From Escherichia phage vB_EcoM_Lutter, in the sequence record NC_054924.1: a stretch of DNA of 64,000 nt. One strand, 5' to 3'. Position 1 is the stretch's first letter, and every line of letters begins with the position of its first letter. This document shows positions 25,744 to 45,627 of the stretch, one piece after another. The notes beneath the pieces were generated by a model. It made no database searches, had not been told where the DNA came from, and saw nothing but the letters and a program-made list of their open reading frames with translations. A program made the translations under genes and the position numbers.

Positions 25744-25753
25744 AATAATTTCC

Positions 25754-25990
25754 TCAAATACAAGTAGTAATTACTCCAGTAGTGCTTACACAGATATTAC
25801 CTAATTGAACACCCAGCGTTCCATTAGTATTCACATGAAGATTATCATCAATTTTAACTGATATTTTACCATTAGTGTGAATAACGGTGCTAGATTCAAT
25901 CACAGGTTGAGTATCATTTTCAACACTAACAAATGGAACTGCTGCTAATGCAACTAAACAAACTGCTAAGCATCCCATAACAATTTTCAT
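25754..25990 (-). CDS. small secreted protein
   Basis: Start placed at MKIVMGCLAV (ATG 25990) with GGAG SD; the longer track ORF translates the upstream promoter. Confidence 0.45.
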   Translation of the reverse strand: MKIVMGCLAVCLVALAAVPFVSVENDTQPVIESSTVIHTNGKISVKIDDNLHVNTNGTLGVQLGNICVSTTGVITTCI

Positions 25991-28946: not shown

Positions 28947-29168
28947 TTAAATTAGTACTATTTGTCGGTGAAAAATTGTCATTCCATCTGCATTAATTGA
29001 CTTAACGACTGCGGTAAAGTGTTTTTGTTCTGGATGAATTAATTTTTGAAATTCTACCTGAAATTTTAGTTGAAGGTTTTCTGGTAAATCAAAAAGTGTT
29101 TCTGTTGCAGAAAGATTATATTTTTCTTTAAGAGACGCCATGTATTCTTGCGGAGTTATAGCAGTCAT
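28947..29168 (-). CDS. hypothetical protein
   Basis: 73 aa from internal ATG 29168, which sits one nt after the regA stop. Confidence 0.3.
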   Translation of the reverse strand: MTAITPQEYMASLKEKYNLSATETLFDLPENLQLKFQVEFQKLIHPEQKHFTAVVKSINADGMTIFHRQIVLI

Positions 29169-29169
29169 A

Positions 29170-32500: not shown

Positions 32501-34183
32501 TTAAACCATTACAGTAAATCGACCAACTTTCTTCATTTGAAGATGCTGACCATATTCTTGCGGGTCATGGTCTTTATGCGAAATTATAAAAACATTAGTG
32601 TTTTTCATTGAATTTATAATATTAGCTACACCTTTAATACCTTCGGCATCAAATGACCCATCAAACACTTCATCGAGTATTAATGTACTAATACTAACAC
32701 CAGATACAATAGAAGCAATATCACGCCAAGTAAATAAAAGAGCAATATCAATTCTTGCTTTTTCACCTTCACTAAATGAAGCATAACTAAAATCTTCGCG
32801 ACCACGGGATTTAATTGTCTCATTAAATTCTTCATCTAATGTAAACACATAATCCGCTTCCATTATTTTAAGATAATGGTTAATCTGCTTATTAAATAAT
32901 GGAATGTACTTTTTAATAATAGCACCTTTAATACCAGAATCTTTGAGCATATCAGTCAAAATTCCTCGGTGGTATTTTTCCATTACTAAATTAGTTTTTG
33001 TCTTAACAATTTTATCAAGTTCTTCTTGAAGCAGTGCTATTTCATCAGCATGGTCAATAAACTCAGAAGATGCTTTTTCTATAGCCGCTTTAACTTTTTT
33101 AGCTTTATCTACTGCTGCGATCAGAGATTGCTTTTTATTGCGAATATCATTTGCCAACGACTGCTGAGTTTTAATATTATCTCGGTATTCATCAACAAGA
33201 ACTTTTAAATTATCACGATGTGTTGAAAGCTGTTCAAACGAATGCGTGCATTCAGAAACTTTATCTTTAATTTTAGAAACAACTTTATCACCGGAACTCA
33301 ATTGTGACAAACAGGTTGGACATAATCCACCTTCGTGATACATATTAATGACTTTATTATATGAGTCAATTTTTGATTTAATTAAAACTGCTTCTTGACC
33401 GATTTTATTAAATGCATCAGTCGGGTCTTCATCTAAAACAATATTAACTAATCTTTCATTAGCTTCTTCTATTTCCGATTTTAGCGTTCTAGCTTCTTTT
33501 GCCAAATCATCATACATATTTTGCAGACGAATAAGGTTTTCACCAGTTAATTTTTTCTGGCGTTCAACGTTATCATTATATATTTTAATTTGTTGGATAA
33601 TACTATCTTTTTTAACATCAAGCACTTGGTTTTGTGAATTTAATTCACGTATTAGTGCTTTATTAAGCTTATCCATTTCAGCTAATGTTCCTACCTCGAG
33701 CAGGTCTTCCACAAGCTTTCTTCGCGCAGGGGTCGACAAACCCATGAAAGGGGTATACCCTGCTGTACCAAGGACAACAATCTGCTTGAAACTGGCATAT
33801 GACATTCCGATAAGCTGTTCAAATTCTGCTTGGAAATCTTTACTGCTGGCAGATTCATTAAGACGTGTACCGTTAACGGTGATTTCGAAAACGTTCGGTT
33901 TTTGTCCTCTTTTGATATAGTACTTTTTCTCATCATATTCCATCCACAGTTCAACTAAAAGTTCTTTCTTATTTGTGCTGTTTATTAATTGACCTTTCTT
34001 TACATCACGAAATGGCTTGCCAAAAAGCCCAAATGTGATGGCTTCTAGCATAGTAGACTTACCACCGCCATTTCGTCCAGTAATAAGAGTTTTTTGAACC
34101 TTATCTAATTGAATGTCAACTCCATTTTGACCAACTGACATTATATTTTTATATTTTACTCTATTAAGTTTAAATGATTTCAT
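32501..34183 (-). CDS. 46: recombination endonuclease subunit (Rad50/SbcC-like ATPase)
   Basis: 560-aa ORF with N-terminal Walker A (GRNGGGKST), coiled-coil middle, C-terminal signature and Walker B (LILDEVFDGSFD). Confidence 0.9.
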   Translation of the reverse strand: MKSFKLNRVKYKNIMSVGQNGVDIQLDKVQKTLITGRNGGGKSTMLEAITFGLFGKPFRDVKKGQLINSTNKKELLVELWMEYDEKKYYIKRGQKPNVFEITVNGTRLNESASSKDFQAEFEQLIGMSYASFKQIVVLGTAGYTPFMGLSTPARRKLVEDLLEVGTLAEMDKLNKALIRELNSQNQVLDVKKDSIIQQIKIYNDNVERQKKLTGENLIRLQNMYDDLAKEARTLKSEIEEANERLVNIVLDEDPTDAFNKIGQEAVLIKSKIDSYNKVINMYHEGGLCPTCLSQLSSGDKVVSKIKDKVSECTHSFEQLSTHRDNLKVLVDEYRDNIKTQQSLANDIRNKKQSLIAAVDKAKKVKAAIEKASSEFIDHADEIALLQEELDKIVKTKTNLVMEKYHRGILTDMLKDSGIKGAIIKKYIPLFNKQINHYLKIMEADYVFTLDEEFNETIKSRGREDFSYASFSEGEKARIDIALLFTWRDIASIVSGVSISTLILDEVFDGSFDAEGIKGVANIINSMKNTNVFIISHKDHDPQEYGQHLQMKKVGRFTVMV

Positions 34184-34198
34184 TTTGTATCCAATTGT

Positions 34199-35053
34199 TC
34201 ACAATGAAGAAAATTCTTTAACTAAAGCCTGTAATGAAGCCTCTATTGGATATCCGTTCTTAACTAACATTTTCCTAAACATCACATGTTTAGGACGATT
34301 ATATGATATCCACAATTCATACAATTTATCTTTATTATCCCAATGATAGCCTTTTCGTCGAGATGCTATATGAGCTTTTCTAATCTCCGGATTTTTCCAA
34401 CTAGCAGCTACTGAATTTGATATAGCTATTTTATATTCAGGTTTTGATAAAGCAGCACGAACAGCCTTTTGGTGTTTAATTTTATTTTCTTCGTTATTAA
34501 ACCATTCCCTTGAAGCCATTGAAATTTTTTGTTTTGTTTTAAAACTATTTAATCTTTCTTTGTTATCTTTCCTATTTTTTGCTACTGAAAAATATTTTAA
34601 TGCCCTTTCTCTAGCAGCATTTCTATTTTGCGGATTTGAATAATATTGTTGAAGCCTTTTTGATATTGTGTCACTTACATCTTGTTTTATAAAACTATAT
34701 TCAGCAGCTATTAAATCAACTTCGGCTAAAGATAAATTTTTATATGTTTTTCCTGACATCATTCTATTTAAAGCATTTAGCATTTTTCCATTTTTACCTT
34801 TTGCTAATAAGAAATGTGCTTTAAAATGATTAAAATGACTTAAATTAACTAAATTCCATGTAGATTTTAAATATTCAGGAAATATTGATTTAGGAAGCAC
34901 GTGATGTGCTTCCGTTTTACCTGGAGTTTTAACAGTTGAATTCATAGAAATAAAATTAATGTAAGACTTGGCGTCTTCTTCACTCAACGCTAATTTTTCA
35001 ACTAATTCCTTTATTAAAAATTCATCATTAATGTCAAGTTTAAAATTCTTCAC
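34199..35053 (-). mobile_element. free-standing HNH homing endonuclease gene (GTG start)
   Basis: 284-aa ORF with HNH motif (EAHHVLPKS...NLVNLSHFNHFKAH) and a basic repeat-rich C-terminal DNA-binding region; inserted between 46 and 47. Confidence 0.7.
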
Positions 35054-35256
35054 AAAAGATTCCTTTTAATGTATCTTTTAGACCATTCTATCATATCATC
35101 ATAATCTAAAAAGTATTCATCAAATTCAGCCATGCAAACAACACCTTGTGCTGTTTTTGATGTAATATAAATTATTCCAACATATCTAGAATCTTCTTCG
35201 GTATAATCAATGTTTGCTATGAATTCATCATTAATGTCAAATGTCGAAAACTTCAC
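35050..35256 (-). CDS. hypothetical protein (46.1/46.2 position); start uncertain
   Basis: Track ORF runs to 35313; likely GTG start at 35256 with AAGGA SD, homologous to the HNH gene initiation region. Confidence 0.35.
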   Translation of the reverse strand: MKFSTFDINDEFIANIDYTEEDSRYVGIIYITSKTAQGVVCMAEFDEYFLDYDDMIEWSKRYIKRNLL

Positions 35257-35500
35257 AGTATGCATCCTTAATACAAGATACGGCCATATCTCGCAATGAT
35301 TTAGGTGTGTCATTATCTAAAATGTTGAAGTTAAAAGATACAGCCCAATCTGTACAGACCGTAACTTTTTTAATACAATTATCTTCAACCTCTAGCGGTT
35401 CAAACCAATATTCAATAATTTCTTTATGCCCAATATCATCTTTTACTTCACATTCAAAATGCTGACTCATCATAACATTTTTAAATTCATCAAAAGTCAT
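35237..35500 (-). CDS. hypothetical protein (46.2 position)
   Basis: 87-aa ORF. Confidence 0.4.
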   Translation of the reverse strand: MTFDEFKNVMMSQHFECEVKDDIGHKEIIEYWFEPLEVEDNCIKKVTVCTDWAVSFNFNILDNDTPKSLRDMAVSCIKDAYCEVFDI

Positions 35501-36516
35501 TGTGTTGCCTCTACATATAACTGATTTGCATATTGAATAAGTGCTTCACGGTCAGAATCAGTGATGTCTGGAATTGCATTAATGTATTCTTCCATCAACG
35601 TCTGAAGAGATTGAACTTCAACTTCTTCACTGTCATCTGACTCGACAGAGTTATCAATCTTTGACACAACTCGTAATGAATGCACAACTTTTTCTAGTTC
35701 AGATTCGAACTTCGTCAGATTTTTGTCTACTTCAGTTACTATAACACGTACTGATAGATTTGTAAAATCTTTATAGTCAATTTTTCCTTTAAATGGATAA
35801 TGAATTCTACGATGCCAGGTAGTATTGTTTGGAATAAATTCCATTCGTTCTGTTTCTGTATCAAACATCCAGAACCCACGAGGGTCATTCTCGTCACCTG
35901 CAGTTAGTGTCCATGGTGTCCCAATATATCTGACGTTTGCAGCCTCAGAGATAGTATGGAAGTGACCAGACCACACCTCTTTATAAGTCTTAAGGAAATC
36001 AGGTTCAAGACCGTGAGATTTCATTCCTTTATAAAAATAAAATCCATTCAGTTCCCAGTGACCAACACAAAAAGAAGCAGATGAAGTTTTGATGTGCTCA
36101 AGAATTTCACCAGTATTTTCTTCGCACATCCAAGGAATTAAATCAATTAAACATCCGTCAAAATCGACTGTAGTAGGCTTATCATATACTTTAACATTAG
36201 GATATTTAGCCAAAAGCTCAGTAGAAGCATTTGGATGCATTACATTTTTGTAGTGGAGATCGTGATTTCCTACAATAGTATGTAATGTGATTCCAGCGTC
36301 ATCAAGCATTTGAACTATTTCACGGGCAAACTCCATAGTTTTATGTGTGATTGCTTTTCGCACATCAAAAATATCACCATATTGAATCCATACAGTAATT
36401 CCATTTTTCTTAGAATATTCTATCGCTTGCTTAATTCCATCAATTTGAATACCGCGAATCCACTCATCATCAGCTTTAACGCCTAAATGCCAATCACCCA
36501 AGTTTAGTATTTTCAT
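35497..36516 (-). CDS. 47: recombination endonuclease subunit (Mre11/SbcD-like phosphoesterase)
   Basis: 339-aa ORF with calcineurin-like motifs (DWHLG, GDIFD, GNHD). Confidence 0.9.
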   Translation of the reverse strand: MKILNLGDWHLGVKADDEWIRGIQIDGIKQAIEYSKKNGITVWIQYGDIFDVRKAITHKTMEFAREIVQMLDDAGITLHTIVGNHDLHYKNVMHPNASTELLAKYPNVKVYDKPTTVDFDGCLIDLIPWMCEENTGEILEHIKTSSASFCVGHWELNGFYFYKGMKSHGLEPDFLKTYKEVWSGHFHTISEAANVRYIGTPWTLTAGDENDPRGFWMFDTETERMEFIPNNTTWHRRIHYPFKGKIDYKDFTNLSVRVIVTEVDKNLTKFESELEKVVHSLRVVSKIDNSVESDDSEEVEVQSLQTLMEEYINAIPDITDSDREALIQYANQLYVEATQ

Positions 36517-37117
36517 GGTGTCTTTTCCATCCTAATTTAGCTGCTTTTGAAACCAGTTCTTTAATTTTTCCTTTTGTCCATTCAGGACCAGGAGGTTCAT
36601 GACATAACAATTGCTTAACTCCGTTATTATACCATTTTTTACCTTTATTATGTGATGAAGCTTTAAATTTATTTGACCTTCCTTTTACATAACCTTCTGG
36701 AATATAAGGCAAAAAGGCAGATTTTCCTGTTAATGGATCATGTGAATGTATATTTCCTTTACAATTATGAGAACCATATAATGGATGATTTTGTCCTTTA
36801 TTATCTCTTCCAAATGAACCTTTTGGAGCAGCATATGACATATTAAAGAATAATGGATTTTTAACTGCATCATGCAATCGTTGATAATATAACTCGCATT
36901 TAATAGCTTCTTCACGTGTATCAAATTCAGCTAAAATGCATGAATCAAATAAGTGAGGATTATCTAAAAGCTCTTTATTATAAATTTTCTTATACTTTTT
37001 AGATAAAACTGAACCATGATATCCAGCTAAATGCCTATCTAAAGACGTAGATCCAATATAAAAAGGAGGAAGTTTATCTCCACTATATATTGTTAAATAA
37101 GTTATATATTTTTTCAT
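36494..37117 (-). mobile_element. GIY-YIG (Seg-like) homing endonuclease gene
   Basis: 207-aa ORF with GIY-YIG motif (YITYLTI...FYIGST, R, E) and NUMOD3-like repeats (GQNHPLYG, KGKKWYNNG); 3' end overlaps the start of gene 47 by 23 nt. Confidence 0.6.
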
Positions 37118-37296: not shown

Positions 37297-38496
37297 TTTT
37301 GTAATAATGTCAAACTGTTCTTTAAAGCAGAAGCTTGAATCTTGATGCTGATACAAAAATTCATAAGCTTTTTCGCGTTCACGGTCATAAAGAGCTCGGT
37401 CAGATGACAGTTCTTTAATACGCTCAAATGTTGATTCCATGTCATTTTCATCAAACCAAACGATACCGCTATCATGAGAAATTAACGGAGTATTATCAAC
37501 ACGGAATTTTAAATTTTCACCAGTAGATTTCCAAAATACTGGAATTGTTCCGCATGCACCAAGCTCGAGATGAGTGTATTCTAAAGAACGTTGTAGATAT
37601 TTTTTATCTAATTTACTCAGCTGATAACCAAATCCGGATTTACTCATACGTTCAAGCATTTCGCTATTTACATAACGGTCGAGAATTTGCGTTGACAAAT
37701 TAGGAGCAATTTTAATTTGGTCTACTTGATGAAGACGATAATACTCGTATGGAATTCCTTTTTCTTTAATAGGAATGAACGCTGGAGAACGTTCCAGACC
37801 TTCCATAATAGTACTCAATCCCGCAGGTTTAAGATGTTTTTCATGAAAATCAAACATCTGATAAAAGCCTTTCCATGTAGTAGTACGACCAATCCAACGG
37901 TTGATATTCATGTTAATTTCAGAAACATCTTTCCAGTAGGTTGATCGAACCTTCGCAATATCCATAGGAGGCTGAAAGTTATATACGGTCGGTGCTTCTT
38001 CAATATCATCAAACAGAGAAACTGTTTCTGGATACCATTCTTTCATCAGAACTTTATTAAAATCGCCATTATCAGAATGGCTAAAAATAACATCAGCTCG
38101 ACGAACAGTTTCTTCTAATCCCAAATTTCGGCGCAAAGAAAGAGAAGAATGGTCATGTTGATAAACTACAACACGAACCGAAGGTTTAATGTTATCAATA
38201 ATTTTTTTATAGTTATTAATAGTGTCTTCTTCGACTGAAGTAGCAGGAACTGAATTGATAATTAGAATATCACAATCATTTACCAGCTTAAGTGTTTTAT
38301 CGTATTCTTTTGCCAATAAAACCGGAATTGAAAATGACTTATAATCATGCGCGCAATTACGAGTAAATGATTTATCTTTAGCATAAACCAAAGTTACTTC
38401 ATGACCATTTTTAATAAACCAATCACGTTGCTCAAGAGAAAATTTAGTTACGCCACAACCTTCAAGACCTCGAGCCATAAAAATGCATACTTTCAT
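37294..38496 (-). CDS. a-gt: DNA alpha-glucosyltransferase
   Basis: 400-aa ORF matching T4 alpha-gt in length and N-terminus (CIFMARGLEGCGVTKFSLEQ). Confidence 0.9.
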   Translation of the reverse strand: MKVCIFMARGLEGCGVTKFSLEQRDWFIKNGHEVTLVYAKDKSFTRNCAHDYKSFSIPVLLAKEYDKTLKLVNDCDILIINSVPATSVEEDTINNYKKIIDNIKPSVRVVVYQHDHSSLSLRRNLGLEETVRRADVIFSHSDNGDFNKVLMKEWYPETVSLFDDIEEAPTVYNFQPPMDIAKVRSTYWKDVSEINMNINRWIGRTTTWKGFYQMFDFHEKHLKPAGLSTIMEGLERSPAFIPIKEKGIPYEYYRLHQVDQIKIAPNLSTQILDRYVNSEMLERMSKSGFGYQLSKLDKKYLQRSLEYTHLELGACGTIPVFWKSTGENLKFRVDNTPLISHDSGIVWFDENDMESTFERIKELSSDRALYDREREKAYEFLYQHQDSSFCFKEQFDIITK

Positions 38497-38560
38497 TTAA
38501 TATCCTCATTGTTTTGGTTTATTTTACCAAAAATTTATAAAGCAATATAGGAGCCGAAGC

Positions 38561-39990: not shown

Positions 39991-40068
39991 TTTCACCTCT
40001 TAGCTCAATTCATAGATCTATTATATCATAATATTTGAAGATCTATCTTAAAGCACAGAGGATATCAG

Positions 40069-40338
40069 TTATCTAAGTAAGCAGTATGCTTGGAACACTT
40101 TCTCCATCATCTTTTTAAATTCATGAATATCTATATAATGACTAGTTAAATCAGCATGATATAAAAAGTCTAAAAACTTTTTATGGGTATTAGAATATTT
40201 ACTTCCAGTTAATTCAGAAACATGGCTTTCCCAATATCCAACACCAGTTTTATTTGGGAAAAATGAAATTTTCATGTATTGGTCAACATAGAAAATACCA
40301 AAATTTTCAATAGCAATAGAAATATTAATTAATTTCAT
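40069..40338 (-). CDS. hypothetical protein
   Basis: 89-aa ORF. Confidence 0.4.
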   Translation of the reverse strand: MKLINISIAIENFGIFYVDQYMKISFFPNKTGVGYWESHVSELTGSKYSNTHKKFLDFLYHADLTSHYIDIHEFKKMMEKVFQAYCLLR

Positions 40339-42530: not shown

Positions 42531-43001
42531 TTAATCATGTTTCCACACCCCATCGGTATTTGACCAAAGCCGCTGATTATCTGATCCTCGCCACAGCTTT
42601 TTAGTCGGAAGATTTTTCTCATACTTCCCATCAATAATAACATCAACATATTTAAGCATTTCTAGCTGTTTAACATCTTCAAACTTATATCCTGTCCACA
42701 ACCAAATGCTTTTATTGGGATAAAGATTTTTTACTGTTTGAACAATGCAATGAATAACATCTCGGTTATCAGGATAGAGAGGGTCACCTCCAGTTATAGT
42801 CAATCCTTCTATATAATCATTATTCAAACATTCAATTAATTGCTCTAGTGTTTCACCAGTGAATGGAACGCCATTTCTAGCGTTCCATGTTGATTTATTA
42901 TAACACCCTTCACATTTATGCAAACAACCTGTAACGAAAAGAACGACCCTGCATCCAGGGCCATTCACAAAATCGCAAGGATAAAATCTATCATAATTCA
43001 T
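42531..43001 (-). CDS. nrdG: anaerobic ribonucleotide reductase activating protein (radical SAM)
   Basis: 156-aa ORF with CxxxCxxC cluster (CLHKCEGC). Confidence 0.9.
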   Translation of the reverse strand: MNYDRFYPCDFVNGPGCRVVLFVTGCLHKCEGCYNKSTWNARNGVPFTGETLEQLIECLNNDYIEGLTITGGDPLYPDNRDVIHCIVQTVKNLYPNKSIWLWTGYKFEDVKQLEMLKYVDVIIDGKYEKNLPTKKLWRGSDNQRLWSNTDGVWKHD

Positions 43002-44815
43002 TGGTGTTTAACCCTATGCATGATTTCTTTATTTTTGCCGAGATTAAATCCACGTTCGTTCGGATTTCCCAAATAACCACAAGTTCTTCTTATTGTGTTC
43101 ATCTTTTTAGGATCAGTTTCTCCACAAATAGAACAAACAAACCCGTTTTCAGTAGGAGTCATTTCATGGGTACTTCCGCATGTAAAACACTTATCTACTG
43201 GCATATTAACACCAAAATAATCTAAATGCTGTGCAGCATAATCCCACACGGCCTCAAGACCTTTTAGGTTATTTTTCATATCAGGAAGTTCAACATAAGA
43301 AATGTGACCACCTGTCGCAATGAAATGATATGGCGCTTCACGAGAAATCTTTTCAAACGGAGTAATATTTTCTTCTACTGAAACATGGAAACTATTAGTG
43401 TACCAGCCTTTATCAGTAACATCCTTTACACTTCCATATTTCTCAGTATCAAGTTTACAGAAGCGATAGCACAGGTTTTCAGCAGGAGTAGAATACAAGC
43501 TAAAAGCAAAACCAGTTCTTTCAGTCCACTGCTTAAGACGAGCATTCATTTTAGTTAAAATTTCTCGTCCAATATCACGACCGACAAGAATATTCAATTC
43601 GTGAATACCAATGTATCCTAGGGACACTGAACTTCTACCGTTTTTAAATAACTCAATTATGTCGTCATCAGGTTTAAGACGAACCCCGAATGCACCTTCT
43701 TGGTAAAGAATAGGAGCAACAGTAGCTTTAACTCCTTTTAAGGAACTAATTCTACACATCAAAGCTTCAAAACATAAATCCATTCGTTCATTAAATAGCT
43801 CAACAAATTTCTGTTCATTGAATTGTGTTCCAATATAAGAATCTAACGCGATGCGAGGAAGATTCAGTGTTACAACACCAAGATTATTACGTCCATCAAG
43901 AATTTCATTACCAGTCGAATCTTTCCATACGCTCAAGAAACTACGGCAACCCATTGGAGAAACAGGAACAGATGAACCGGTGATAGCTTTATTGTTCTTA
44001 GCTGAAATAATATCAGGATACATTCTTTTGCTTGCACACTCTAGAGCAAGCTGCTTAATATCATAGTTCGGATCGTCTTTGTAAAGATTAACGCCTTCTT
44101 CGACGAACATAACAAGCTTAGGAAAAATAGGAGTTATCCCATCACGACCGAGACCTTTAATGCGGTTTTTAAGAATTGCCTTCTGAATCATTCGTTCAGT
44201 CCAGTCAGTTCCCGTACCAAATGTAATTGTTACAAAAGGAGTCTGTCCGTTTGAACTAAAGAGAGTATTTACTTCATATTCATAAGCTTGGAATGCATCG
44301 TATACGTCTTTTTCTGTTTTAGATTGAGCATAATTCAACGCATCAGCGATTTGCCATTTTTCTGCATCCTCAATATGTTTTGCATAGGTGCGTTTAACAT
44401 AAGGAGAAAGTACTTTATCTACATTCGCAAAAGTCGTTCCGCCATATTGGTGAGAAGCAACCTGTGCAGTAATTTGTGCCATAATTGCAGTAGCAACGCC
44501 AATTGATTTAGGAGTTTCAATCTGTGCATTACCTAGCTTAAATCCATTCTCAAGCATCCCCTTTAAATCTACTAAACAACAATTAGTAAAGGGCAATGAT
44601 ATACTGTAATCTAAATCATGAAAATGAATTAATCCAACATTATGGGCATTTACAATATGACTTGGAAGAATACGACAAGCGATATGTTTAGAAACAATAC
44701 CGGCCATTAAATCTCTTTTTGTTGGAAAGACACGAGAATCTTTGTTGGCGTTTTCGGTATTTAATTCTTTATCTTTATTTGAAATAAAATTTAAAACATC
44801 TTTCTCTAAAGACAT
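42998..44815 (-). CDS. nrdD: anaerobic ribonucleoside-triphosphate reductase, intronless
   Basis: 605-aa continuous ORF with C-terminal glycyl radical motif (RRTCGYLG) and zinc ribbon. Confidence 0.9.
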   Translation of the reverse strand: MSLEKDVLNFISNKDKELNTENANKDSRVFPTKRDLMAGIVSKHIACRILPSHIVNAHNVGLIHFHDLDYSISLPFTNCCLVDLKGMLENGFKLGNAQIETPKSIGVATAIMAQITAQVASHQYGGTTFANVDKVLSPYVKRTYAKHIEDAEKWQIADALNYAQSKTEKDVYDAFQAYEYEVNTLFSSNGQTPFVTITFGTGTDWTERMIQKAILKNRIKGLGRDGITPIFPKLVMFVEEGVNLYKDDPNYDIKQLALECASKRMYPDIISAKNNKAITGSSVPVSPMGCRSFLSVWKDSTGNEILDGRNNLGVVTLNLPRIALDSYIGTQFNEQKFVELFNERMDLCFEALMCRISSLKGVKATVAPILYQEGAFGVRLKPDDDIIELFKNGRSSVSLGYIGIHELNILVGRDIGREILTKMNARLKQWTERTGFAFSLYSTPAENLCYRFCKLDTEKYGSVKDVTDKGWYTNSFHVSVEENITPFEKISREAPYHFIATGGHISYVELPDMKNNLKGLEAVWDYAAQHLDYFGVNMPVDKCFTCGSTHEMTPTENGFVCSICGETDPKKMNTIRRTCGYLGNPNERGFNLGKNKEIMHRVKHQ

Positions 44816-45627
44816 AATTCTAATTTATCCTTTTGAAATTCTTCGTCTAAATATGGGTTCCAACCCATTTTAAACCTTTTGATGAAATTATCAATTCTAA
44901 ATTTCGGTAAGTTTAAATCCGCAAAAATAGATGATTTACTTTTAAAATCTGGACCTAAATAATCATATAAAATTTCTGCGTATTTTAACCATAATATACA
45001 AGTACCAGATTTAATTGCGTTCGGATGTTTCCAAGGTTTTACACCATACATCGGATTTCCACTTCCTTTATGCCTGATAGAAGATGAAATTCCAATTTTA
45101 ATTTTAGCTTCCTTTGTATGCGAAAATCCACGATGCGGATTTTCTTTCCAGTATTTTTTAGAAGCTTCTGATATTTTCTTTCTGGCTAAATTAGTATGAT
45201 GCTTTCCATAAAATCCATGATTTTTGCCTTTATTACGATTTCTTTTAATCATGGTTATTGATTGCTTTTCTCTAGTTTCTTTAGAAGGAGAAACACCGTA
45301 CGTTGTAAATTGACCATCAGCATATGCTAAATTAAAATACTCTTTATTCCATACATCTTTTTCTATATTCTTTTGAAATTCAGCTTCAATGCTAGTTATT
45401 TGTTCATCTCCGACTAATTGAAAATATAATATTTCAACTTTCGGCGTTTCTTTCAATAAGGCTTTTTGAAATTCGGAAGATGACGAAGACGAATAATAAA
45501 ATTTACCATTTTTATCAATAATATTCGTTCCATCAAAAGTGCAATTGGTTTTACTTCCAATGTAATAATATGGTGGGGTTTTAGCATTAATTCTATTAAT
45601 AAATGATAGTTTATATACTACGTTCAT
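44806..45627 (-). mobile_element. GIY-YIG (Seg-like) homing endonuclease gene
   Basis: 273-aa ORF with GIY-YIG-like N-terminus (VYKLSF...YYIGSKT) and NUMOD3-like repeats (GKNHGFYG, SGNPMYG); between nrdD and 49. Confidence 0.6.

Follow-up and report, generated by a model that had tools for sequence, protein, structure and literature searches.

A Mob-like HNH endonuclease gene at the start of gene 46 in T2-type phages

Among the mobile elements described in phage T4, MobE is close in kind to the gene considered here: it is a Mob-type HNH endonuclease, encoded by a promoter-less cassette, dependent on upstream transcription, in the operon between nrdA and nrdB. The start codon of mobE overlaps the stop of the upstream gene (PMC2988022). 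The gene has no promoter of its own and its product nicks nucleotides 122-126, in the 5' part of the downstream nrdB, where polymorphisms were proposed by the authors to spare the mobE-carrying genome (PMC2790892). We analysed a 284-amino-acid open reading frame (ORF; 34199..35053, minus strand) for a Mob-like HNH homing endonuclease in a 64,000-nucleotide stretch of Escherichia phage vB_EcoM_Lutter (NC_054924.1), referred to below as the window, in which it lies between genes 46.1 and 46. In our assessment, it is probably a promoter-less, free-standing cassette of the Mob family whose in-frame insertion follows codon 6 of gene 46, where that gene's GTG and the 46.1 stop overlap. It differs from MobE in its locus (46.1/46) and in being known from sequence alone, and its ORF is joined to codons of both neighbours, the first six of the downstream gene and six from the upstream one; the two MobE papers describe neither fusion (PMC2988022, PMC2790892).

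A 2010 review of T4 mobile elements covers promoter-less cassettes, overlaps with upstream ORFs and possible translational coupling; mobC figures there only for overlapping its upstream ORF, and no word beginning with "duplicat" occurs in the review. T4 mobC nevertheless offers the nearer parallel in architecture. It begins with the initiation region and first seven codons of nrdG (MNYDRIY), and nrdG is regenerated after it, leaving a 21-nucleotide repeat. The window is itself an empty site for T4 mobC, with the nrdD stop overlapping the nrdG start (42981-43001). At the same nrdD/nrdG position, a Mob gene of phage AndreasVesalius begins with 13 nrdG codons identical to the undisturbed nrdG of the window, and the regenerated nrdG copy carries several substitutions. 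Both are thus ORFs on the original initiation region of the downstream gene, which is rebuilt in altered form. They differ from the window gene in their target gene and in the absence of a second patch from the upstream gene, and the proteins are 25-36% identical to the window enzyme.

Closer orthologues are found at the 47/46 locus in Mosigvirus (AV113, F2), Gelderlandvirus (Melville, CF-SP2) and the metagenomic contig L021, with proteins 45% identical to the window enzyme and, as here, a cassette 3' end that supplies the gene 46 start. Their left junctions are different. In Mosigvirus AV113, the endonuclease gene begins with 46.1 codons 1-7 (MTKTDYE) and stands in place of the remainder of 46.1, a gene that is intact in the non-carrier APCEc01. 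The Gelderlandvirus and L021 genes start on an ATGA that overlaps the stop of gene 47; in the corresponding empty site, that of STML-198, the GTGA of gene 46 lies at the gene 47 stop. In the window, the left junction consists of gene 46 codons 1-6 followed by 46.1 codons 7-12, and 46.1 is retained.

In Seg homing (SegF/SegG), a free-standing endonuclease gene is inherited together with flanking sequence (PMC2988022). These enzymes differ in belonging to the GIY-YIG family and in having cleavage sites that are sometimes hundreds of base pairs away, and no captured N-terminus is described for them. Work by Bonocora et al. from 2011 reportedly found that the T4 mobA/gene 60 cassette carries sequence altering the neighbouring gene. 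Set beside these systems, the window gene does not stand for a new kind of system; its insertion architecture is common to T4 mobC, and what our analysis adds is a neat general rule and a target prediction that can be tested.

The empty site and the anatomy of the insert

The insertion site is defined by comparison with phages that lack the gene. In T4, which has no endonuclease here, the 46.1 stop overlaps the GTG of gene 46 at the junction ...ATTAAAAGGAATCTTTTGTGAAGAATTTTAAACTTAATAGAGTA...; the T4 sequence ...AAAAGGAATCTTTTGTGAAGAATTTTAAACTT comprises the 3' end of 46.1, then the GTG and first six codons of gene 46, with AATAGAG next. The window has exactly this AAAAGGAATCTTTTGTGAAGAATTTTAAACTT sequence directly before the endonuclease body. 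BLAST homology between the window and T4 includes GTG AAG AAT TTT AAA CTT (35053-35036), ends at 35036 and resumes at 34174 with TTTAAACTT AAT AGA of gene 46. Measured against the empty site of T4, the insert thus spans 861 bp (34175..35035, minus strand) and holds the endonuclease from codon 7 onward, a 15-nucleotide spacer and a rebuilt ATG AAA TCA for gene 46. The sequence before it, which we call the captured initiation region of gene 46 (35036..35065, minus strand), comprises AAGGA (35065-35061), a 7-nucleotide spacer, GTG (35053-35051) and codons 1-6, and is 100% identical to the T4 gene 46 start. Because homology to T4 is contiguous through codon 6 of the endonuclease, we read the AAGGA, the 7-nucleotide spacer, the GTG, the GTGA overlap and codons 1-6 as gene 46's own, taken over in place.

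At the other end of the insert, the 5' end of gene 46 is duplicated and rebuilt as ATGAAATCATTTAAACTT, with a changed third codon (ATG AAA TCA TTT AAA CTT, MKSFKL vs VKNFKL). The new initiation region supplied by the cassette (34181..34198, minus strand) has a spacer, ACAATTGGATACAAA, a weak GGA Shine-Dalgarno and an ATG (34183-34181) located 15 nucleotides after the endonuclease stop, the TGA at 34201-34199. Gene 46, encoding a Rad50/SbcC-like subunit (32501..34183, minus strand), now begins MKSFKL... with an ATG start, where T4 has VKNFKL... with a GTG start. The two junctions carry copies of a 9-bp direct repeat, TTTAAACTT: the left copy (35036..35044, minus strand) is part of an 18-nucleotide imperfect duplication of gene 46 codons 1-6, and the right copy (34166..34174, minus strand) forms codons 4-6 of the rebuilt gene. 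Repeat lengths vary across related cassettes (4-7, 9/18, 21 and 39 nucleotides), unlike a transposon-type target-site duplication, which staggered cutting makes exact and fixed in length, and the copies are diverged coding sequence of the downstream gene. The repeats reflect regeneration of a gene's 5' end, not the footprint of a transposase.

The region belongs to a Tequatrovirus (T-even) genome of the T2 type. A 1.9-kb query around the endonuclease had matches in 517 phage records, 70 of which cover the full query (T2, RB51/RB68, PP01 and others). The contiguous T4-type junction is present in 446 records and the insert in 69-70, with 100% identity in vB_EcoM_C2-3 and 99.3% in T6. The cassette is thus polymorphic in presence and absence, with base-precise boundaries, among close relatives, as for a Mob-type homing endonuclease. 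Gene 46 is contiguous downstream of the ORF, which is separate from both neighbours, outside any intron or intein, and in this sense free-standing. The first-pass annotation had placed it between the genes of the recombination nuclease; its position between 46.1 and 46 lies within the 47-46 nuclease operon.

The same annotation proposed a duplication of the 5' end of 46.1, the gene upstream (DUF5487, 68 amino acids counted from GTG; 35050..35256, minus strand), as the source of the endonuclease's ribosome-binding site, GTG and N-terminus; the stop of 46.1 overlaps the endonuclease start. The likeness behind this proposal extends well beyond a few nucleotides. The 5' ends of the two genes form a gapless direct repeat of 45 nucleotides at 78% identity and an offset of 203 nucleotides, within which 19 nucleotides, TTGACATTAATGATGAATT, match exactly (35019-35037 and 35222-35240). 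Both copies occupy nucleotides 17-35 of their ORFs. Many T4 genes begin M/V-K and the genome is AT-rich, so chance or convergence on favoured early codons had to be considered as a source of the likeness. We reject this explanation: the 19-mer occurs nowhere else in the window even when two mismatches are allowed, it was found in 0/100 shuffles, and the in-register identity over nucleotides 4-35 (26/32) is higher than in all 4851 control pairs of 5' ends of window ORFs (maximum 23).

The repeat is real, then, and AAGGA and GTG AAG are found in both genes; the donor of the initiation region is another matter. The Shine-Dalgarno, the 7-nucleotide spacing, the GTG and codons 1-6 of the endonuclease are 100% identical to the T4 gene 46 start and contiguous with the 3' end of 46.1. 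Nucleotides 4-21 match T4 gene 46 at 18/18 positions and 46.1 at only 12/18, and the likeness of 46.1 and gene 46 in AAGGA and GTG AAG is present in T4, which has no insert. A count by hand of the first 36 nucleotides of the endonuclease against a second 46.1 allele, that of metagenomic contig L011, gives 28/36 and tells against our reading, leaving some small likelihood to a 46.1-type origin of the whole 5' end. On balance, we regard duplication of the 46.1 initiation region as improbable. What survives of the proposal is its spirit, since a resident initiation region does seem to have been borrowed, together with the 46.1 copy in codons 7-12; the donor it named for the ribosome-binding site, the GTG and codons 1-6, and the direction of copying, appear to be wrong.

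The start codons also need some care. For the endonuclease, the GTG is the first possible start after an in-frame stop, and no upstream ATG competes with it. In 46.1, an in-frame ATG lies 9 nucleotides upstream of the GTG. The GTG is still the probable start, because the ATG abuts AAGGA, RefSeq annotates T4 46.1 from GTG, and a divergent 46.1 allele has an ATG exactly at the position of T4's GTG. The spacing from AAGGA to GTG, given earlier as 8 nucleotides for the endonuclease, is 7 there and 8 in 46.1. Most automatic gene calls use the upstream ATG of 46.1 (71 amino acids; window 35254-35265), which falls inside AAGGATG, the Shine-Dalgarno for the GTG, and the start annotation is inconsistent across databases.

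The arrangement explains how a promoter-less endonuclease gene gets translated. As had been suggested, we found no promoter belonging to the gene: motif scans, which cannot prove absence, returned no promoter motif of the sigma-70-like, late or MotA type immediately upstream on the coding strand, and no TATAAATA or MotA-box motif in 34000-36700. The GTGA at 35053-35050 combines the endonuclease GTG with the 46.1 TGA, and the same overlap serves gene 46 in T4. Translation of the endonuclease would start from the original AAGGA and GTG of gene 46, as the identity of both with T4 suggests, and would be coupled to 46.1 through GTGA, with residues 1-6 (VKNFKL) being those of gp46. Two other candidate signals were discarded. 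The TTGACA inside the 19-nucleotide repeat resembles a -35 box, yet the coding strand has no predicted promoter of the sigma-70, late or MotA type there. As for an RNA structure that masks the ribosome-binding site, of the kind found in mobE or I-TevI, prediction gave only a weak AU-rich hairpin at the endonuclease start (z = -1.66) and no structure where gene 46 now begins.

Across genera, gp46 keeps its N-terminal residues, which are presumably required; the cassette therefore has, at its 3' end, a rebuilt, partly recoded start, GGATACAAA ATG AAA TCA TTT AAA CTT. A selfish gene would then have landed on the start of the gene downstream, and gene 46 now depends on a start signal carried by the invader. 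Because only a precise deletion restores gene 46, such a cassette should be hard to lose.

Source of codons 7-12 and the history of gene 46.1

Codons 7-12 of the endonuclease (DINDEF), supplied by the first 17 nucleotides of the insert, GACATTAATGATGAATT, are the same as codons 7-12 of 46.1. The 19-nucleotide exact copy of 46.1 nucleotides 17-35 (codons 6/7-12, ..DINDEF) lies at 35019..35037 of the minus strand, 17 of its nucleotides being beyond the T4 homology, and its counterpart in the resident 46.1 at 35222..35240, also minus. We read this patch as foreign to the endonuclease family and derived from 46.1. The first ~12 residues of the endonuclease are an extension relative to Mob homologues: HMMER matches in a library of 1.8 billion proteins start at query residue ~13-30 and homologue residues ~2-20, and the closest orthologues have different N-terminal beginnings without DINDEF. 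In 46.1, the region is native, since divergent alleles from non-carriers keep the pattern F-[DNS]-[IL]-x-[DN]-[EG]-[FYW] in versions such as FNLGDEF, FSIGDGY and FNLGNGW. These same findings bear on the reverse possibility, that DINDEF is native to the endonuclease and reached 46.1 through an earlier endonuclease insertion. Some Mob homologues do begin MDIN... or MKNLFLIKEL..., but with the motif kept in non-carrier 46.1 alleles and lacking in the closest endonuclease orthologues, we hold this to be very improbable. The patch would be a relic of recombination and not a functional copy of the 46.1 initiation region. It now moves with the cassette: in the metagenomic contig L013 the endonuclease still begins VKNFKLDINDEF beside a local 46.1 with a different 5' end.

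How the patch arose is the least certain step of the proposed history, and two origins fit the sequences. In the first, an ancestral endonuclease would have been fused to the first 12 codons of 46.1, much as the Mosigvirus gene still is to seven, and a crossover where the 5' ends of 46.1 and 46 resemble each other would have moved the cassette one gene downstream and left an intact 46.1 upstream. The 5' ends of 46.1 and 46 agree at 10/18 positions in T4 and at 13-14/18 in metagenomic contigs L009 and L011, with a control maximum of 14. In the second, template switching at the founding insertion would have filled in the 17 nucleotides, copied from 46.1, before re-annealing at GATGAATT. The region around the endonuclease stop, TCTTCATTGTGAACAAT, was considered as a relic of an old 46.1/46 junction; we do not claim it as such, because 7-8% of shuffles, or of random 70-mers from the genome, score as high in local alignment.

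Gene 46.1 itself (body at 35050-35230 of the window) looks like an earlier, horizontally moving mini-cassette that captured the first codons of gene 46. This view draws on its 5' likeness to gene 46, on the T4-like 46.1 body found in divergent genomes, and on a difference between S16 and STML-198. In VR20 (Gaprivervirus, L025), L009 and L011, identity to T4 is 95-100% from about codon 10 of 46.1 to the gene 46 start, the adjoining downstream gene 46 has ~70% identity to T4, and the upstream 46.2 side is not alignable in register. S16 and STML-198 differ by a 46.1-like gene with a flanking ~11-nucleotide repeat of the gene 46 start.

Taken together, the front of gene 46 may be a stacking site, entered by 46.1 and then by the endonuclease, each capturing and rebuilding the start, and in-frame capture of a downstream gene's opening codons, with a recoded copy regenerated behind the insert, may be a general, undescribed insertion rule of Mob genes and perhaps of Seg genes as well. 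We offer this joint idea tentatively and think it rather less likely than otherwise. If the stacking were true, the chimeric N-terminus, with six gp46 and six gp46.1 codons, would be a fossil record of two successive insertion positions; if the capture rule were true, expression, retention and possibly self-immunity would be secured in one step. In-frame capture of this sort explains the lineage-specific N-terminal extension of each such gene. In annotating free-standing endonuclease genes, one should not count their first codons as part of the protein family.

Endonuclease family, mobility and the predicted target

The earlier assignment to free-standing HNH homing endonucleases is well supported, on the basis of PHROGs, BLAST and alignment. 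The protein matches PHROG 655 ("homing endonuclease", E=2.4e-45), a tblastn search with it matches T4 mobD and mobC of phage PST, and BLASTP against T4 MobC gives E=7e-8 with the HH...N...H motif aligned. The residues of the HNH catalytic motif (H50, H51, N67, H76 and H80) are invariant in an alignment of 16 sequences of relatives. A PDB sequence search returned no HNH match. By sequence, then, the enzyme appears to be an uncharacterised member of the known Mob family, and its gene is already labelled "homing endonuclease" in RefSeq for T2, T6, RB68 and others.

The distribution of the gene is that of an element both moving and decaying. It is intact in the window, T6 and PP01. In T2 (NC_054931 = L001, 2800-3652), it is a pseudogene, with a 2-nucleotide deletion and two annotated ORFs, and in RB51/RB68 a 1-nucleotide deletion shortens the product to 208 amino acids. 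The backbone of L013 is that of a Mosigvirus, with 97-100% identity to AV113 on either side of a tract that runs from the last ~90 nucleotides of 46.1 to nucleotide ~65 of gene 46. Over this tract, L013 is instead 97-100% identical to the window, with flanks of the co-conversion type. This indicates transfer of the cassette between genera together with short flanking tracts.

The flank in gene 46 varies with the cassette. All 69 of 69 Tequatrovirus carriers have one allele of gene 46 nucleotides 10-65, NRVKYKNIMSVGQNG (allele A). About 370 of the non-carriers do not match it, and the three inspected (KarlGJung, HY03 and phiC600P9) have allele B, NRVRYQNIMSVGGNP. Between carriers and non-carriers of the same genus, in Tequatro-, Mosig- and Gelderlandvirus alike, three codons differ: carriers have K or S for Q at codon 12, GTT for GTR at codon 17 and Q for G at codon 19. 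In Gelderlandvirus, the Melville-type carrier flank and the T2-type flank have 24 identical nucleotides in common, TTTAAACTTAATAGAGTAAAATAT, despite an identity of just 45% between the enzymes. Because the same codons differ in three genera, and with MobE as an analogy, we predict a target/immunity site at gene 46 nucleotides 34-57 (codons 12, 17 and 19; 34127..34150, minus strand). By that analogy, the enzyme would introduce a nick or break at this site, within the 5' part of gene 46, in phages without the cassette, repair from a carrier genome would copy the cassette and short flanks, and the linked variant of nucleotides 10-65 would travel along and protect carriers through its substitutions. 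T4-like phages with allele B would be natural recipients, and the comparison of three genera makes the target prediction concrete. With both target and recipients predicted, mobility of the T2/T6 endonuclease can be tested in classical crosses.

Several observations weigh against the preferred reading of an in-frame homing cassette and its linked target. Allele A is also found in 74 non-carriers, including T4, and the non-carriers VR20, L009 and L011 have K12 and Q19-like variants; for these reasons, the carrier-linked substitutions are not strictly diagnostic. The linkage within Tequatrovirus could reflect common descent instead of co-conversion. Pfam HNH models match the endonuclease below threshold. 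The ancestor expected under the fusion route, with 46.1 codons 1-12 joined directly to the endonuclease and no intact 46.1, was not found in the phage collection, and exact-pattern scans for the ancestral junction returned nothing from IMG/VR and JGI metagenomes. A BLAST search with a synthetic ancestral junction gave two-piece matches only, and the T2-type gene seems to be absent altogether from IMG/VR and JGI metagenomes.

Sharing of allele A also invites another history, in which the T4-type junction is secondary: T4 and the 73 other allele-A non-carriers would have lost the cassette by deletion between the TTTAAACTT repeats, and the GTG region would originally have been that of the endonuclease. 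T4 does have the same allele of nucleotides 10-65 as all carriers, where ~370 other non-carriers differ, and a deletion between the 9-bp repeats yields exactly the T4 sequence. If gene 46 instead provided the start, as we propose, close non-carrier relatives would be expected to have a gene 46 start of the form GTGAAGAATTTTAAACTT. A GTGAAGA.TTTTAA start overlapping the 46.1 stop is present in allele-B Tequatroviruses, VR20 and the metagenomic contigs L009-L011, and STML-198 has an equivalent gene 46 start, GTGAAAACATTTAAG, overlapping the stop of gene 47. Because allele-B phages and these divergent non-carriers have the same or an equivalent start, the initiation region predates the cassette whether or not T4 once carried it. 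We therefore regard the GTG AAG A start of gene 46 as ancestral, and the T4-type start as no by-product of insert loss; a secondary origin of the T4-type junction seems unlikely to us, if less so than the rivals considered above.

One further record deserves caution. In phage Ac3 (OK040907.1, L008/L019), a ~3.3-kb stretch at 31.95-35.23 kb has 45-50% G+C, against 35% in the backbone, and takes in gene 46, the T2-type endonuclease and an antisense HNH gene of 238 amino acids. Nearly all of its changes relative to T2-type phages are synonymous, so that the encoded amino acids stay the same, and frameshifts are present. In appearance, the stretch resembles codon-optimised synthetic DNA or a chimeric assembly and not the product of natural divergence. 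The antisense product is equal in length to, and at the position corresponding to, a 238-amino-acid HNH-type ORF on the opposite strand between gene 46 and 45.2 in L010, a metagenomic T4-like contig (4392-5108).

Other insertions in the window

On the minus strand, the gene order around the locus is a-gt, 47.1, a GIY-YIG gene, 47, 46.2, 46.1, the HNH gene, 46, 45.2, rpbA and 45. Two GIY-YIG genes of the window likewise sit on old start codons, those of gene 47 and nrdD, with a shared stretch of only 4-7 nucleotides. The first encodes 207 amino acids (seg-like; 36494-37117, minus strand), lies between 47.1 and 47 and is lacking in T4 and T2. It is a 594-bp insert on the old ATGA start of gene 47, flanked by the 7-nucleotide repeat ATGAAAA, with 23 nucleotides of overlap between its 3' end and the rebuilt start of gene 47. 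A related GIY-YIG gene at the same place in the contigs L011 and L012 begins differently (MFVAYLTIY).

The second, a seg-like gene of 273 amino acids (44806-45627, minus strand), is located between gene 49 and nrdD and is lacking in T4; its ATG and the gene 49 stop overlap, at the position of the nrdD start in T4. Strong divergence from T4 is seen over the first ~225 nucleotides of nrdD (MSLEKDV.. vs MTIEKEI..). Relative to T4, the window is without mobC, mobB and the nrdD intron with I-TevII (42981-43001, 38487-38512 and 44277-44280, respectively). It has three more insertions of ~215-260 bp, at 25744-25976 (near imm.1/43), 28955-29169 (near 43/regA) and 40064-40323 (near 55/55.1).

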